From a virus (lineage: Duplodnaviria > Heunggongvirae > Uroviricota > Caudoviricetes), in IMG/VR virus record IMGVR_UViG_2675903654_000014, positions 1 through 4,062 of that record: 4,062 nt of DNA; one strand, given 5' to 3'. The translations under genes and the position numbers were made by a program. Under the pieces are notes generated by a model. That model had not been told where the DNA came from. It made no database searches and worked only from the letters and a program-made list of their open reading frames with translations. Within the stretch, counting starts at the first letter, position 1; each line of letters starts with the position of its first letter. This document shows, in pieces, positions 1 through 4,062 of this stretch.

Positions 1-227
1 GGGAAGGCTGGGCCATACTCCTCCGGCAGAAGCAGAAAAAGCTTATTATGCTTCCATCGGAAACGATGATCTGGCAGCCTGAGTTCACAGATAAAACACT
101 CTCCAGGAAACCCGGGGCGGTTCAAAACGCCCATGATTTTACAGGCTTTTGATACGTTGCTGAGTTCTTCAGCCAGATTGAGCAAACCGGCTTTGTGTTT
201 GATAACGGGATTGGTAGTATGAAGCAT
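1..227 (-). CDS. Partial CDS (start in window, runs off the left edge): putative DNA-binding protein with HTH-like N-terminus and a CxxC...Hx5H motif
   Basis: ATG at 227-225 on minus with GAGGT Shine-Dalgarno 8 nt upstream; frame open for 75 codons to position 1 with no stop. Translation begins MLHTTNPVIKHKAGLLNLAEELSNVSKACKIMGV, then ...GECFICELRLPDHRFRWKH. Absent from the ORF track because it is edge-truncated. Confidence 0.4.
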   Translation of the reverse strand, partial: MLHTTNPVIKHKAGLLNLAEELSNVSKACKIMGVLNRPGFPGECFICELRLPDHRFRWKHNKLFLLLPEEYGPAF

Positions 228-287
228 GAGAGTTACCTCGTGTTTTGTATAAGGATTCGACACCCATATCAAAACCGGTAACTCTCA
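227..287 (-). promoter_or_regulatory. Fold-back inverted repeat predicted to sequester the SD and AUG of the left HTH ORF
   Basis: Perfect 11-bp arms TGAGAGTTACC (227-237) and GGTAACTCTCA (277-287) separated by 39 nt. On the minus-strand RNA the downstream arm contains the last two G of the SD and the A of the AUG. Confidence 0.35.
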
Positions 288-350
288 ACCTTTCAAGGCT
301 CAGTGTCAGATCAAGTCGCGACTAATACACTCAATTCCATCATAAACTTC

Positions 351-479
351 TCAGTTGTTAGCTTTTGCCGAACTGGAAAGCGCCTGTTTAAACTCACTGA
401 AGCTGAGAGCTTCTTCGCCTTCGGCAAGGCCTTCGAAGTATTCTTCGTAAGCCTTTTTCATGATTGTGTCGAAATCCAT
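351..479 (-). CDS. Small hypothetical protein, 42 aa, acidic and probably helical
   Basis: ATG at 479-477 on minus with GGTGA SD 5 nt upstream; stop TGA at 353-351; lies 10 nt downstream of the 48-aa ORF stop. Translation MDFDTIMKKAYEEYFEGLAEGEEALSFSEFKQALSSSAKANN. The overlapping plus-strand track ORF 303..533 is F/L-rich with a GTG start and looks like its antisense shadow. Confidence 0.45.
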   Translation of the reverse strand: MDFDTIMKKAYEEYFEGLAEGEEALSFSEFKQALSSSAKANN

Positions 480-489
480 ATCACTCACC

Positions 490-636
490 TTAGTTTCTTT
501 CCAACCAGCGACGTGCGCCAGCTTCGGTTTTAAACGATTTGCTTTTGGTATACGTCATGGCGGTGAATGTGCCGTCCTGATTGGGAAACACGCCACATAC
601 CAGAGATTCGTTGTTGCCAAGATCGATAGTATCCAT
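490..636 (-). CDS. Small hypothetical protein, 48 aa
   Basis: ATG at 636-634 on minus with GAGG SD 5 nt upstream; stop TAA at 492-490. Translation MDTIDLGNNESLVCGVFPNQDGTFTAMTYTKSKSFKTEAGARRWLERN. The track extends this frame to a TTG at 699 that has no SD; the internal ATG is preferred. Position next to the repressor resembles the tiny ydaG/ydaF-type ORFs of Rac-like prophages (size and position only). Confidence 0.45.
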   Translation of the reverse strand: MDTIDLGNNESLVCGVFPNQDGTFTAMTYTKSKSFKTEAGARRWLERN

Positions 637-816
637 GTTGACCTCATTTCCCCTTAACGCCGGGTGGCGGAACGTTTTATCTACTGCGCTTTGTATCAAT
701 CAACAACTGCCGTCATGTTCGTATGCCTCAGGCTGGCTACTTAGCCCTGTTCAGTGGCTGGATAACTCGAGGTATTGTCCAGCCGTTCTCTGGTGGGGCG
801 TTGTTTGGATATGCTT

Positions 817-845
817 ATTAAACACAATGCGTTTTCTTATGTCAA
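817..845 (-). promoter_or_regulatory. Leftward sigma70-type promoter (PL-like): TTGACA, 17-bp spacer, TTTAAT
   Basis: On the minus strand, perfect -35 TTGACA (plus 840-845) and -10 TTTAAT (plus 817-822) with a 17-bp spacer. It lies just downstream of the repressor terminator and is oriented toward the small ORFs. Confidence 0.5.
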
Positions 846-858
846 CACGAAATGTGTT
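844..858. promoter_or_regulatory. Candidate operator (OL-like) 15-bp palindrome AACACGAAATGTGTT overlapping the -35 of the leftward promoter
   Basis: Inverted half-sites AACAC / GTGTT; related to the two palindromes in the repressor-cro intergenic region (1373-1387, 1419-1433). Confidence 0.4.
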
Positions 859-885
859 TTGTGGTGAGTGTCATATGATGATGGT

Positions 886-911
886 ACAAAAAAGCCCGCT
901 GATAGCGGGCT
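886..911 (-). terminator. Rho-independent terminator for the repressor gene
   Basis: 8-bp GC-rich stem AGCCCGCT (893-900) / AGCGGGCT (904-911) with a 3-nt loop, followed on the minus strand by UUUUUGU (plus A-run 888-892). It is 30 nt downstream of the repressor stop and is not a terminator in the plus orientation. Confidence 0.55.
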
Positions 912-941
912 GATTGGCATATTACTGTGATAGCAAGATCA

Positions 942-1361
942 TTACTCCGGTGGGGGATTATCTTTAAGCCTGCCTCTCAAATATTTTTCTACATACTCAT
1001 CGATTTCTTTTAGCCGGACTTCAAATAGCTCAATCATTCGTTGTTGTTCTGAGCCAGGTAGCTGGTTAAACAACTCAAGAAGTTTTCGTTGGGATTCATT
1101 TAACCACAATTCAGAAGATTCCTGTTCTCCAAATAGGAGCTCAGGAGGAGATATGCCAAGTGCCTTTCCCAATACGACAGCGTCATGCACTCCAACATTT
1201 CTGCTGCCCGCCTCATAGTTACCTATACGCGATTGCGTCCATCCGCAGATTTCAGCAAGTTTTCCTTGAGATAAACCAAGCTTCTGCCTGCGCTCTTTAA
1301 GACGCATTGCAATTTTGTCATTGAGCCTACTAGCGGCAATTTTTTCGTTTTCTTTTTCCAT
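942..1361 (-). CDS. Prophage repressor, XRE-family HTH (CI/RacR-like), 139 aa, no S24 peptidase domain
   Basis: Track ORF with ATG at 1361 and AAGGA SD 4 nt upstream. HTH segment LGLSQGKLAEICGWTQSRIGNYEAG; C-terminal part is helical and charged with no Ser/Lys peptidase motif. Divergent from a Cro-like gene, as in lambdoid immunity regions. Confidence 0.85.
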   Translation of the reverse strand: MEKENEKIAASRLNDKIAMRLKERRQKLGLSQGKLAEICGWTQSRIGNYEAGSRNVGVHDAVVLGKALGISPPELLFGEQESSELWLNESQRKLLELFNQLPGSEQQRMIELFEVRLKEIDEYVEKYLRGRLKDNPPPE

Positions 1362-1372
1362 TGCATCCTTGT

Positions 1373-1387
1373 ATCACGAATCGTGAT
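1373..1387. promoter_or_regulatory. Candidate operator: perfect 15-bp palindrome ATCACGAaTCGTGAT in the repressor 5' leader
   Basis: 7-bp perfect arms around one central base; lies 2 nt upstream of the repressor SD on its mRNA. Confidence 0.4.
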
Positions 1388-1408
1388 TTACATAAAACAC
1401 AAAACAGC

Positions 1409-1439
1409 TTGACCATATAACACAAGGTGTGTTTAAAAT
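1409..1439 (+). promoter_or_regulatory. Rightward promoter (PR-like) for the cro-like operon
   Basis: -35 TTGACC (1409-1414), then -10 TTTAAA (1432-1437, 17-bp spacer) or TAAAAT (1434-1439, 19-bp spacer); followed by GGAGG SD (1447-1451) and ATG at 1458. Confidence 0.45.
1419..1433. promoter_or_regulatory. Candidate operator (OR-like) 15-bp palindrome AACACAaggTGTGTT overlapping the PR spacer and -10
   Basis: Perfect 6-bp arms AACACA / TGTGTT with a 3-nt centre; same half-site family as 844-858. Confidence 0.4.
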
Positions 1440-1457
1440 TGTCATCGGAGGTTTTCA

Positions 1458-1700
1458 ATGAACAAAATTTCAACATATCGAAAACAGCTTGGGCTGTCTC
1501 AAAGACAACTTGCTGTTCAGTTAGGGTGGATACAAAGCCGACTGGCAAATTACGAAGCAAATTTTCGTACCCCTGGACTAGAGGAGTGCAGAAAAATTGT
1601 TTCTACCCTTAATCGGCTTGGCGCTCATTGTGGACTTGACGATGTATTCCCCCCAGACGGTAAGCATAGCGAAAACAGCATAGGAGCGGTTGATTCATGA
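1458..1700 (+). CDS. Cro-like XRE-family HTH regulator, 80 aa
   Basis: Track ORF with ATG at 1458 and GGAGG SD 6 nt upstream. HTH LGLSQRQLAVQLGWIQSRLANYEAN is about 60 percent identical to the repressor HTH over 30 residues. First gene of the rightward operon; its stop overlaps the next start (ATGA). Confidence 0.8.
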   Translation: MNKISTYRKQLGLSQRQLAVQLGWIQSRLANYEANFRTPGLEECRKIVSTLNRLGAHCGLDDVFPPDGKHSENSIGAVDS

Positions 1701-1707
1701 AAATCAG
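1690..1707. promoter_or_regulatory. Inverted repeat TTGATT-N6-AATCAg spanning the cro stop / ydaT-like start
   Basis: TTGATT (1690-1695), 6-nt spacer, AATCAG (1702-1707); 11 of 12 positions palindromic. Confidence 0.4.
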
Positions 1708-2119
1708 GCATGAGCACATCGAATCAGTGTTGTTAGCCCTGGCAGCCGAAAAAGGGCAGGCGTGGGTCGCTAACGCAATTACTGAAGAATATCTGCGCCA
1801 GGGGGGCGGCGAATTGCCCCTGGTACCAGGCAAGGACTGGAATAATCAGCAGAACATCTATCACCGTTGGTTAAAAGGTGAAACGAAAGCGCAAAGGGAA
1901 AAAATTCAGAAACTGATCCCTGCGGTTCTGGCAATTCTTCCGCGCGAGCTGCGTCACCGACTCTGCATCTTCGATACCCTGGAACGCCGTGCATTACTGG
2001 CGGCGCAGGAAGCGTTGAGTACGGCAATTGATGCGCATGATGATGCAGTCCAGGCCGTTTACCGGAAAGCACATTTCAGCGGTGGTGGGTCGCCCGGCGA
2101 TTCTGTCGTAGTGCATTGA
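1697..2119 (+). CDS. ydaT: YdaT-like protein (CII-functional-analogue / putative toxin family of Rac-type prophages), 140 aa
   Basis: Track ORF; ATG at 1697 overlaps the cro-like stop (ATGA). Translation MKIRHEHIESVLLALAAEKGQAWVANAITEEYLRQGGGELPLV... matches my recollection of YdaT in sequence and length (140 aa). Position after cro equals that of lambda cII. Confidence 0.75.
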   Translation: MKIRHEHIESVLLALAAEKGQAWVANAITEEYLRQGGGELPLVPGKDWNNQQNIYHRWLKGETKAQREKIQKLIPAVLAILPRELRHRLCIFDTLERRALLAAQEALSTAIDAHDDAVQAVYRKAHFSGGGSPGDSVVVH

Positions 2120-2133
2120 TTGAAATTAATCGT
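2116..2133. promoter_or_regulatory. Inverted repeat TTGATT-N6-AATCgt overlapping the ydaT-like stop codon
   Basis: TTGATT (2116-2121), 6-nt spacer, AATCGT (2128-2133); 10 of 12 positions palindromic; same half-site as 1690-1707. Confidence 0.35.
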
Positions 2134-2164
2134 GCCGGATTGTTTTGTTCGGTATCAGTTAAAT

Positions 2165-2183
2165 GTAACGCTGCGAGCGTTAC
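2165..2183. repeat. 19-bp dyad repeat copy 1, GTAACGCTgcgAGCGTTAC, just upstream of the initiator SD
   Basis: Perfect 8-bp arms; the AAGGTGA SD follows immediately and the ATG is at 2197. Confidence 0.6.
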
Positions 2184-2196
2184 AAGGTGAAAACAA

Positions 2197-2979
2197 ATGG
2201 CTTCAAACTGGATAAAGCTCGAGGTTATTACGCCGGATAAGCCGGAAATATTCAGGCTTGCTGAGATTCTGAATATTGATCCAGATGCCGCATTAGGGAA
2301 GGTTATTCGCTTCTGGGCATGGGCGGATCAACAAATGATAGACGGTAATGCAGATTGTAACGCTCGCGGCGTTACAAAAAGTGCAATAGATCGCATCACT
2401 TTTATGGCTGGTTTTGCTGATGCGTTAATTCAGGTTGGATGGCTGATCGAAAATGACGGTGGGCTTTCTCTACCTAACTTTGAACGTCATAACGGGAAAA
2501 GCTCTAAAAAACGGGCGGTTACAAACGAGCGAGTAACAAAAATACGCGAACTGCAACGAAAAGGTAACGCTGCCAGCGTTACACAAACGGATCAAAAAGC
2601 GTTACCAGAGGAAGAGGAAGATATAAATACTGATCTCCCCCTAAATCCCCCTCGCCAAAAACGAGCGTCTAAAAAATTCGAGCCGGAGGCTATCGAGCTG
2701 CCTGACTGGTTGCCGGAAACACTCTGGCATGAGTGGTTTCAGTTCAGGCAGGCATTGCGAAAACCGATTCGAACGGAGCAGGGCGCTAACGGGGCGATAC
2801 GGGAACTGGAAAAATTCCGTCAGCAGGGTTTTACACCTGAGCAGGTGATTCGACACAGCATCGCCAATGAATACCAGGGCTTGTTCGCACCGAAAGGTGT
2901 TCGGCCTGAGACGTTGCTCCGACAGGTTAACACCGTCTCGTTGCCGGACAGTGCGATCCCGCCAGGCTTCAGGGGGTAA
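2197..2979 (+). CDS. Replication initiation protein, YdaU / DUF1376-like (lambda O functional analogue), 260 aa
   Basis: Track ORF with ATG at 2197 and AAGGTGA SD. Sits immediately upstream of a DnaC-like gene, the usual initiator / helicase-loader pairing. Contains internal dyad repeats. Family assignment is from memory of DUF1376-type prophage proteins and was not searched. Confidence 0.75.
   Translation: MASNWIKLEVITPDKPEIFRLAEILNIDPDAALGKVIRFWAWADQQMIDGNADCNARGVTKSAIDRITFMAGFADALIQVGWLIENDGGLSLPNFERHNGKSSKKRAVTNERVTKIRELQRKGNAASVTQTDQKALPEEEEDINTDLPLNPPRQKRASKKFEPEAIELPDWLPETLWHEWFQFRQALRKPIRTEQGANGAIRELEKFRQQGFTPEQVIRHSIANEYQGLFAPKGVRPETLLRQVNTVSLPDSAIPPGFRG
2357..2375. repeat. 19-bp dyad repeat copy 2, GTAACGCtcgcgGCGTTAC, inside the initiator CDS
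   Basis: Perfect 7-bp arms; encodes the peptide CNARGVT. Confidence 0.6.
2518..2537. repeat. Degenerate, inverted-order relative of the dyad repeat (GTTAC-N10-GTAAC)
   Basis: GTTAC (2518-2522) and GTAAC (2533-2537); encodes AVTNERVT. An isolated half-site AGCGTTAC is at 2598-2605. Confidence 0.35.
2564..2582. repeat. 19-bp dyad repeat copy 3, GTAACGCTGcCAGCGTTAC, inside the initiator CDS
   Basis: Perfect 9-bp arms around one central base; encodes GNAASVT. Confidence 0.6.
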
Positions 2980-2985
2980 TGGACC

Positions 2986-3710
2986 ATGAAAAATATTGCG
3001 ACAGGCGGTGTTCTTGAACGTATCCGTAAGCTGGCTCCGCAGCATGTAACCGCGCCGTACCGGACTGTGGACGAGTGGCGAGAGTGGCAGCTTGCAGAAG
3101 GGCGAAAACGTAGCGAGGAGATCAACCGCCTGAATCGTCAGTTGCGGGTGGAAAAAATTCTGAATCGCTCAGGCATCCAGCCGTTGCATCGTAAATGCTC
3201 GTTTGCAAATTACCAGGTGCAGAACGACGGCCAGCGATACGCGTTNNNNNNNTGATGACCGGGGGTACAAATTTTGCGTTCAGCGGAAAACCTGGTACCG
3301 GGAAGAACCACTTAGCGGCAGCTATCGGAAATCGCCTGCTGAAAGATGGCCAGACAGTGATTGTGGTTACTGTGGCTGATGTTATGAGTGCCCTGCATGC
3401 CAGCTATGACGACGGACAGTCAGGCGAAAAATTTTTGCGGGAACTGTGCGAAGTGGATCTGCTGGTTCTTGATGAGATTGGCATTCAGCGCGAGACGAAA
3501 AACGAGCAGGTGGTACTGCACCAGATTATTGATCGACGGACAGCGTCGATGCGTAGCGTGGGAATGCTGACAAATCTGAACTATGAGGCCATGAAAACAT
3601 TGCTCGGTGAGCGGATTATGGATCGCATGACCATGAACAGCGGACGCTGGGTGAATTTTAACTGGGAGAGCTGGCGTCCGAATGTCGTCCAGCCAGGAAT
3701 TGCGAAGTAA
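2986..3710 (+). CDS. DnaC-like replicative helicase loader (AAA+ ATPase; YdaV-like), interrupted by a 7-N gap
   Basis: N-terminal part [20 protein letters not shown]...[26 protein letters not shown] and C-terminal part ...[20 protein letters not shown]...[10 protein letters not shown]...[22 protein letters not shown] align by eye with E. coli DnaC (Walker A GKPGTGK, Walker B LLVLDE). ATG at 2986 with GGGGG SD; stop TAA at 3708-3710. The two halves sit in different frames across the N-run at 3246-3252. Confidence 0.8.
3246..3252. other. Run of 7 ambiguous bases (assembly gap or masked sequence) inside the DnaC-like gene
   Basis: nnnnnnn in the sequence; flanking coding frames differ, and by alignment to DnaC about 11 residues are missing. 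Confidence 0.9.
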
Positions 3711-3732
3711 TTTTTACCGGGAGAAAAATTTA

Positions 3733-4062
3733 ATGGAGACTGTTTTTGACGCACTGAAAGCAATGGGAAAAGCCACATCCATAGAACTTGCTGCGCGACT
3801 TGATATCAGTCGTGAAGAGGTACTGAACGAGCTGTGGGAACTGAAAAAAGCTGGTTTTGTTGATAAAACCGCGTACACCTGGCGCGTGGCTGAAAACAAC
3901 GTTCAGCAGGAACAGTCAGCGCAGGCAGAACTGCCGGAAGAAACCACCACAGCAACAGTAGCGAAAATCTCAGAGTGCGATTTAACCGCAACGATTGAAC
4001 AACGCGGACCACAAACGGCTGATGAGCTGGCTACATTGTTTGATACCACATCACGCAAAGTG
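3733..4062 (+). CDS. Partial CDS (5' end; runs off the right edge): hypothetical protein with two winged-helix-like segments
   Basis: ATG at 3733 with GGGAG SD 9 nt upstream; frame open for 110 codons to the window end. Translation [56 protein letters not shown]...[29 protein letters not shown]. Absent from the ORF track because it is edge-truncated. Confidence 0.55.

Follow-up and report, generated by a model that had tools for sequence, protein, structure and literature searches.

The question raised by this locus is why the same kind of inverted repeat lies on both ends of a single gene. The 4,062-bp stretch analysed here (positions 1 to 4,062 of IMG/VR record IMGVR_UViG_2675903654_000014), which will be called the window, is the part of an Escherichia coli Rac-like lambdoid prophage that carries its immunity and replication genes. 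A TTGATT-N6-AATC repeat sits on the start codon (site 1) and another on the stop codon (site 2) of its ydaT gene (1697-2119, plus strand, ATG 1697-1699, stop TGA 2117-2119; PF06254 match). The initial annotation had taken both repeats as autoregulatory sites. The reading reached here, which is judged fairly probable as a whole, is a different one: site 1 is a YdaT-box working in the manner of the lambda promoter PRE, and site 2 is a promoterless sequence carried by a replication module, most likely a weaker accessory site.

Site 1 (TTGATTCATGAAAATCAG, 1690-1707) spans the ATGA in which the stop of the cro-like gene overlaps the start of ydaT, and site 2 (TTGATTGAAATTAATCGT, 2116-2133), a candidate accessory YdaT site, contains the ydaT stop TGA, just as the initial annotation had placed them. 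The form TTGATT-N6-AATC occurred exactly twice in the window against 0.03 copies expected, and two or more copies were reached in 0 of 200 shuffles. With up to two mismatches allowed, the 12-base consensus gave two matches in the window (0.35 expected), a number reached by 12 of 200 shuffles. In the near-identical prophage of E. coli CD45 (41-kb region), the core GATT-N6-AATC was found at sites 1 and 2, once upstream of xis and nowhere else inside the prophage. Site 1 follows the consensus nTGATT-N6-AATCAn, with one mismatch to the full repeat at a variable outer position; site 2 has a perfect left half and an intact GATT-N6-AATC core, with AATCGT as its right half. No match to the consensus of IHF or DnaA was seen at either site when checked by eye. 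A single weak box-like match with three mismatches was present in the cI-cro intergenic region (GTGATTTACATAAAACAC, 1383-1400), overlapping a palindrome at 1372-1386, and it is within chance expectation at that stringency.

Binding sites of YdaT are known from two prophages. In CP-933P, the target of YdaT is the inverted repeat TTGATT-N6-AATCAA, located where ydaS meets ydaT, as seen by electrophoretic mobility shift assay, DNase I footprinting and isothermal titration calorimetry (Prolic-Kalinsek et al. 2023, PMC9986795); the motif given in the initial annotation is therefore correct. This protein is a 222-symmetric tetramer with a POU-type helix-turn-helix (HTH) and a four-helix bundle, which can hold two duplexes; its authors described a single strong YdaT site, with weak OL/OR sites within ~95 bp that are too close for looping (PMC9986795). 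The promoter PRE933P of CP-933P was predicted and then shown to be YdaT-responsive (Jurenas et al. 2021, PMC8630535). In Rac, YdaT was footprinted with DNase I in 2025 on ATGATTCATGAAAATCAA over the ydaT ATG, and the site was named the YdaT-box (Wons et al., PMC11879457). When the box was mutated or replaced, the 29-fold activation that YdaT gave to a leftward reporter was lost, and so was the activation of racR. The Rac and CP-933P proteins, with ~30% identity between the Rac-type and CP-933P YdaT, cross-activate, and Rac YdaT also binds poorer sites in vitro, namely rcsA (TGAATT-N6-AATATA) and intergenic operators (PMC11879457).

By its position and bases, site 1 is the ortholog of the Rac box, with the same place over the ATG and the same CATGAA spacer, so it is already explained as a known YdaT-box. 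Its position corresponds to that of lambda PRE, as had been proposed. The Rac ortholog has been both footprinted and validated by mutation (PMC11879457). The comparison was extended to YdaT-family loci drawn from species genomes and IMG/VR, in 272 of which a ydaT open reading frame (ORF) was recognised; they comprise Rac, CP-933P, 145-aa E. coli, Klebsiella, Raoultella, Lelliottia and Salmonella types, and only 10 loci were supplied by genome contigs, the comparative power coming mostly from viral contigs. The box nTGATT-N6-AATCA(A/G) covered the ydaT ATG in all 272; its left half deviated only as GGGATT (8 loci) and CTGAAT (1 locus). Many unrelated cro/ydaS modules, from several genera, adjoin the box on its left, and the homology between prophages begins at the box. 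Codon 3 of ydaT was always ATC and codon 2 always ended in A, a fixed choice of codons that points to constraint at the DNA level too. Site 1 confirms that the published YdaT-box travels with ydaT across many immunity types, and it offers no novelty in kind.

The protein is of the same family. The YdaT of the window matched PF06254 ("YdaT_toxin") with 43.3 bits (cutoff 21, E = 5e-11) and gave full-length matches to the structures 3c4r and 8bt1, the phmmer match to 8bt1 being weak. It is 95% identical in amino acids to K-12 Rac YdaT, a figure that also holds for the C-terminal region, whose long helix serves tetramerisation in this family. It keeps H56 and R57, the DNA-contacting residues of the recognition helix in Rac YdaT, for which CP-933P has a conserved Arg (PMC11879457), and an R-W motif was invariant in a 20-sequence alignment. 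From the 95% identity and the cross-binding of the Rac and CP-933P proteins, we infer that the cognate YdaT would bind site 1. The gene is the functional analog of lambda cII; since the protein is PF06254 and the site is an inverted repeat, the system belongs to the YdaT family with its YdaT-box and not, by membership, to the lambda-type CII/PRE.

From this box YdaT would act on a promoter directly beside it. On the minus strand, 21 nt from the box, lies the hexamer TATGCT (1663-1668), the predicted -10 of a YdaT-dependent leftward promoter with an inferred start at ~1656. Minus-strand TAnnnT hexamers were surveyed beyond the box at offsets 0-79 in 21 upstream types sharing <70% identity. In 20 of the 21 types they stood at one of two offsets, 21 (14 types) or 20 (6 types), while other offsets had 0-2 each; the sole exception read CAAAAT. 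Even with the types collapsed to ~13 independent groups, the binomial P for TAnnnT at 20/21 nt was ~1e-17. The hexamer was TATGCT in the window, TATGAT in Rac and TACAAT in the CP-933P type. Klebsiella phage Kp4882-1 showed this geometry as well, and so did mEp237 and HK639, distant phages with a CII of the phi80 type whose box is located 48 nt within a longer gene. The 20-21 nt spacing from box to -10 as a criterion was derived in this analysis and is unpublished. When the start is set ~7 nt past the hexamer, the box would cover about -51 to -34, centred at -42.5 or -41.5. This arrangement argues for a class II activator promoter, like that of lambda CII at PRE, and the PRE analogy with a box near -42 is well supported by the comparison. 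The initial annotation had listed TATGCT as a weak candidate with the box near -42; it turned out to be an element conserved across nearly all upstream types, and it also fits a short reporter fragment of CP-933P.

This fragment bears on where the promoter is. The authors of the Rac study assigned the activation to PracR4, ~190 bp from the box and within the cro/ydaS gene (PMC11879457). If this were general, the YdaT-dependent promoter would be distal and PracR4-like, and the adjacent TAnnnT would be irrelevant. Besides the authors' model, it is favoured by their reporter, which was activated 29-fold with the natural 190-bp distance. However, that construct also held the adjacent TATGAT, so the Rac data are compatible with a box-adjacent promoter, and PracR4 is a BProm/EcoCyc prediction, with no start mapped under YdaT induction. 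Unrelated cro modules nonetheless keep TAnnnT at 20-21 nt. When the PRE933P-gfp primers were mapped on a CP-933P-type locus, the fragment measured 120 bp, composed of 18 nt, the box and 84 nt, and it included TACAAT at offset 21. Since a fragment of only 120 bp, with 84 nt past the box, responds to YdaT, the induced promoter must adjoin the box. A distal promoter is judged quite improbable. The constant distance of 20-21 nt between box and -10, seen in virtually all the phages with YdaT that were compared, argues that YdaT is a class II activator of an adjacent promoter, and the published assignment in Rac to a promoter 190 bp away merits a re-test. The spacing is the most useful product of the analysis, as it allows the position of the YdaT-dependent promoter to be tested directly.

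For the window, the box-adjacent promoter would work as follows. A YdaT tetramer, with its POU-type HTH and in the role of CII, would bind the inverted repeat lying across the ydaT start codon, and from about -42 it would recruit RNA polymerase to an otherwise silent promoter with TATGCT on the minus strand as -10. RNA polymerase would then proceed leftward, antisense to cro, transcribe the cI-like repressor gene and stop at the 893-911 terminator. The cI-like HTH repressor gene (942-1361, minus strand; ORF list and HTH_3 match) is the presumed target because of the analogy with racR activation in Rac, and the hairpin with T-tract 3' of it (893-911, minus strand, intrinsic terminator-like, found in a promoter and terminator scan) is the likely end of leftward transcripts. 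The scan with consensus promoters and terminators over 850-2300 gave nothing at site 1 or site 2; the PRE-like promoter would be missed because it is too weak for the consensus, as expected if it depends on an activator. Its -35 position reads AACCGC, which is poor.

A repeat touches the same region. The sequence CATA(T/G)CGAAAACAGC(T/A)T(G/A)GG was found at 1474-1493, early in cro, and at 1665-1684, where it fills the gap separating the PRE-like -10 from the YdaT-box; the copies are 85% identical over 20 nt, of marginal significance. A related AAAACAGCTTG at 1401-1411 overlaps the likely -35 of PR in the cI-cro intergenic region.

The initial proposal, in which a pair of autoregulatory operators brackets ydaT at its start and its stop, must be weighed against what the Rac box does. 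Site 1 covers the ribosome-binding region and the ATG of ydaT, site 2 covers its stop, and a tetramer could bridge two sites. In Rac, however, expression of ydaT'-lacZ was flat across a gradient of YdaT induction whether the box was wild-type or mutated, and what the box has been shown to do is activate leftward, repressor-directed transcription (PMC11879457). In addition, most ydaT loci have no site 2. Autoregulation thus deserves little credence, and this part of the initial annotation was not upheld.

The equal standing that the initial annotation had given to sites 1 and 2 was likewise not supported. Of the 266 loci in which at least 400 bp follow the ydaT stop, 54 had site 2 with an intact core, and 5 more had a core variant with GATC in place of AATC, giving 59 of 266. 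The final codons of ydaT go with the downstream module: where the window type has GTG CAT TGA, ydaT of K-12 Rac ends in GTT CAT TAA and is followed by a different ydaU module which has no box. Because these last codons track the module, site 2 is part of the left end of a single replication module. The module was present in 681 of 1,508 matching E. coli records (~45%), and among the matches listed for the 1,508 E. coli genomes at megablast identity it was never seen without ydaT, so the two are inseparable in these genomes. Distant homologs of the replication gene (~68% nucleotide identity) exist in TL-2011b, ST11-OXA245phi3.2 and BUCT554, which have no ydaT and no box there; their genes follow a small unrelated gene and are uninformative on the function of site 2. 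As site 2 fails family-wide conservation and promoter geometry, which site 1 passes, it is a lineage-specific candidate extra site and not a second copy of the device at site 1, and any function of it cannot be general or essential to YdaT systems.

Several points weigh against the favoured reading of the two sites. For site 1, a YdaT-dependent transcript start has been mapped in no YdaT system, and the Rac authors place the promoter far from the box; the binding and transcript data come from other prophages; and the right half-site falls within the conserved codons M-(K/E/Q)-I-(K/R), so its conservation is partly driven by coding. For site 2, all 59 loci share one downstream junction and replication module, ~15 other junction types have no box within 400 bp of the stop or inside ydaT, and neither K-12 Rac nor the CP-933P type has site 2, with nothing at the CP-933P ydaT stop. 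The core changes from AATC to GATC in five loci, four of the six left-half bases come from the His codon and the TGA stop, and the outer two bases of the right half are off consensus, with G at position 17 where 272 of 272 start boxes have A. No TAnnnT was found at offset 20/21 of site 2 on either side or strand.

Alternatively, site 2 is no functional operator at all, being a fortuitous or hitch-hiking sequence at the left end of its module, and only site 1 matters. Its restriction to one junction type and its absence from both experimentally studied prophages, the TTGA already supplied by the CAT-TGA codons, the tolerated core change and the missing promoter geometry all agree with this. Site 2 is conserved no better than the neighbouring intergenic bases, and orphan cores exist elsewhere: 241 kb of phage and prophage sequence held 20 copies of GATT-N6-AATC against 3.7 expected, of which 8 were start-codon or xis boxes, 2 were site 2 and 10 were unexplained. 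On the other side, the match is an exact TTGATT-N6-AATC, and two such matches arose in none of the 200 window shuffles. If the 10 unexplained copies are all taken to be background, the probability that ~600 bp of pooled junction sequence contains a core is ~0.02, a rough figure, and a chance origin of site 2 is unlikely. Rac YdaT binds much poorer sites in vitro, and the second DNA-binding face of the tetramer is free. A site 2 without function is a serious possibility, somewhat short of probable. Binding of YdaT to site 2 in vitro is likely, on the grounds of the perfect 8-base core, its rarity and the far poorer sequences bound by Rac YdaT.

Site 2 might also be an activator site in its own right, either for a rightward promoter serving the O-like and DnaC-like genes or for a leftward oop-like antisense RNA. 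It sits between the analogs of cII and O, and in lambda Po/oop lies between cII and O. To our knowledge there is no CII site between cII and O in lambda. A TATCAG is found 19 nt to the right of site 2, but it lacks the key final T and has the wrong spacing, and offsets 20/21 read GGGCGA/GGCGAC leftward and ATCAGT/TCAGTT rightward. Neither a promoter at site 2 nor a minus-strand terminator in the 3' end of ydaT came out of the scan, and there was no Rfam match. This role is very improbable. The oop-like antisense RNA was rejected for want of a minus-strand -10, a terminator and an Rfam match. Site 2 as the -35 of a constitutive rightward promoter was rejected too, no acceptable -10 being present at 16-18 bp by eye and none in the scan. 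A third idea, that site 2 is a degenerate copy of the sequence around the ydaT start, was not supported, as beyond the box the flanks share only scattered identities in an ungapped comparison by eye.

If site 2 does work, the free face of the tetramer suggests how. The second DNA-binding face could hold site 2 and form a 426-bp loop around ydaT, or site 2 could serve as a roadblock ahead of the replication genes; a role as accessory anchor of either kind is the most plausible function and still a tentative proposal, between unlikely and possible. A more specific version, limited to the sub-lineage of Rac-like phages with this replication module, in which the tetramer on the start box captures the stop box, so that the loop stabilises occupancy of the PRE-like promoter and blocks rightward transcription from PR into the replication genes, is rather unlikely. 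Were it true, one protein would couple establishment of the repressor to shut-off of replication, and site 2 would be the second site that the structural paper on CP-933P said its tetramer lacks (PMC9986795). Site 2 is of importance only if YdaT binds it; no other natural arrangement would then pair two sites for this tetramer, which is known to accommodate two duplexes, so that site 2 would provide the first.

Directly after site 2, a plus-strand RNA hairpin was found at 2132-2154, with a 9-bp stem and z = -3.1 to -4.1. The positions polymorphic in related loci, 2134, 2138 and 2140, are all in its stem, where they change G-U to Watson-Crick pairs. The stem is not followed by a U-tract, and the hairpin is therefore no classical terminator.

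YdaT-box-like sites were also seen beyond the window. A third box, TTGATT-(T/A)TTAAT-AATCAG, lies between xis and rcbA/ralR in three prophages or phages: the CD45 prophage (L001, 13726-13743), K-12 Rac (L276, 6873-6890) and vB_EcoS-673R7 (L277, 1569-1586). On either side of it stands a TAnnnT at offset 20/21. The leftward hexamer, TATATT or TAACAT, precedes the xis ATG by 17-25 nt and is retained in two different xis modules; the rightward one is TATAAT or TACAAT, with an inferred start that fits the 179-nt RalA antitoxin small RNA. RalA is described as contained entirely in ydaC, on the other strand (PMC4041452). This third box is not among the YdaT sites reported for Rac in the accessible part of PMC11879457. 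Its geometry suggests a small CII-like regulon, and no PaQ-like box was found in or near the Q gene of vB_EcoS-673R7. Orphan boxes were present in HK639 (L279, 42241-42258, a perfect TTGATTTTCTGGAATCAA in the nin region between gene 61 and ninB), in K-12 Rac (L276, 16488-16505, CTGATTCGCGTAAATCAG inside a DUF1627 pseudogene) and in Kp4882-1 (L280, 27255-27272, ATGATTATTATAAATCAG). None of the three had the -10 geometry, and they could be either chance matches or additional YdaT/CII-like sites that do not activate.

The remaining content of the window is that of a Rac-like prophage. The CD45 prophage, 99.9% identical to the window, also has int, xis, ralR, recT, recE and kilR. The cro-like HTH gene (1458-1700, plus strand, stop TGA 1698-1700; ORF list and HTH_3 match) precedes ydaT, and a YdaU/O-like replication initiator (2197-2979; ORF list and domain match), a DnaC-like loader gene (2986-3710) and the start of a DUF1627 gene follow it. 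Seven N at 3246-3252 split the DnaC-like (ydaV-type) gene into the ORFs 2986-3255 and 3195-3710; this run is an assembly gap and no biological feature. Two palindromes in the cI-cro intergenic region, ATCACG-AAT-CGTGAT at 1372-1386 and AACACA-AGG-TGTGTT at 1418-1432, are probably CI/Cro operators. A 20-bp palindrome, GTAACGC-N5-GCGTTAC, occurs three times (2164-2183, 2356-2375 and 2564-2583, with spacings of 192 and 207 bp), once just upstream of the ribosome-binding site of the O/YdaU-like gene and twice within that gene, and the copies may be binding sites of the replication initiator, for origin function or autoregulation.

Among known systems, the hypothetical role of site 2 has its counterparts in LacI O1-O2/O3 and lambda CI OL-OR, loop-forming tetrameric or octameric repressors in which a protein with two DNA-binding faces bridges a strong and a weaker auxiliary site a few hundred bp apart; this likeness applies to that role only, and site 2 is not conserved in its family.

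Rac of K-12 is the nearest relative (PMC11879457). It shares with the window the 95% identical YdaT, a box at the same position with 16 of 18 bases the same including the CATGAA spacer, and the context with recET, kilR and ralR, and the expected output is likewise leftward activation of the repressor. The outer bases of the box differ, being A1/A18 in Rac and T1/G18 in the window. The cI and cro modules of the window are unrelated to racR/ydaS, and nothing in it corresponds to PracR4 or to the intergenic operators of Rac. Site 2 is also lacking in K-12 Rac, whose ydaT ends in CAT TAA before a different replication module. The activated promoter would be box-adjacent by the present comparison, whereas it is 190 bp away in the Rac paper. 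CP-933P has in common with the window the consensus TTGATT-N6-AATCAA at the ydaS/ydaT junction and the family and fold of the protein, and its YdaT-dependent leftward promoter, within a 120-bp fragment, resembles the one predicted here. It differs in the low identity of its YdaT (~30% to the Rac type), the weak OL/OR nearby and the bare ydaT stop.

With lambda the likeness is one of design. CII, like YdaT, is a tetrameric activator encoded just right of cro, and at PRE its site overlaps the -35 of a silent leftward promoter and the 5' end of the activator gene, with the repressor-making transcript antisense to cro, as predicted for the window. CII is an unrelated protein that recognises a direct repeat, TTGC-N6-TTGC, as an asymmetric dimer of dimers, while YdaT has an inverted repeat and 222 symmetry. 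Lambda CII activates PRE, PI and PaQ, and the second box upstream of xis/int in Rac-like prophages would be the parallel of PI.

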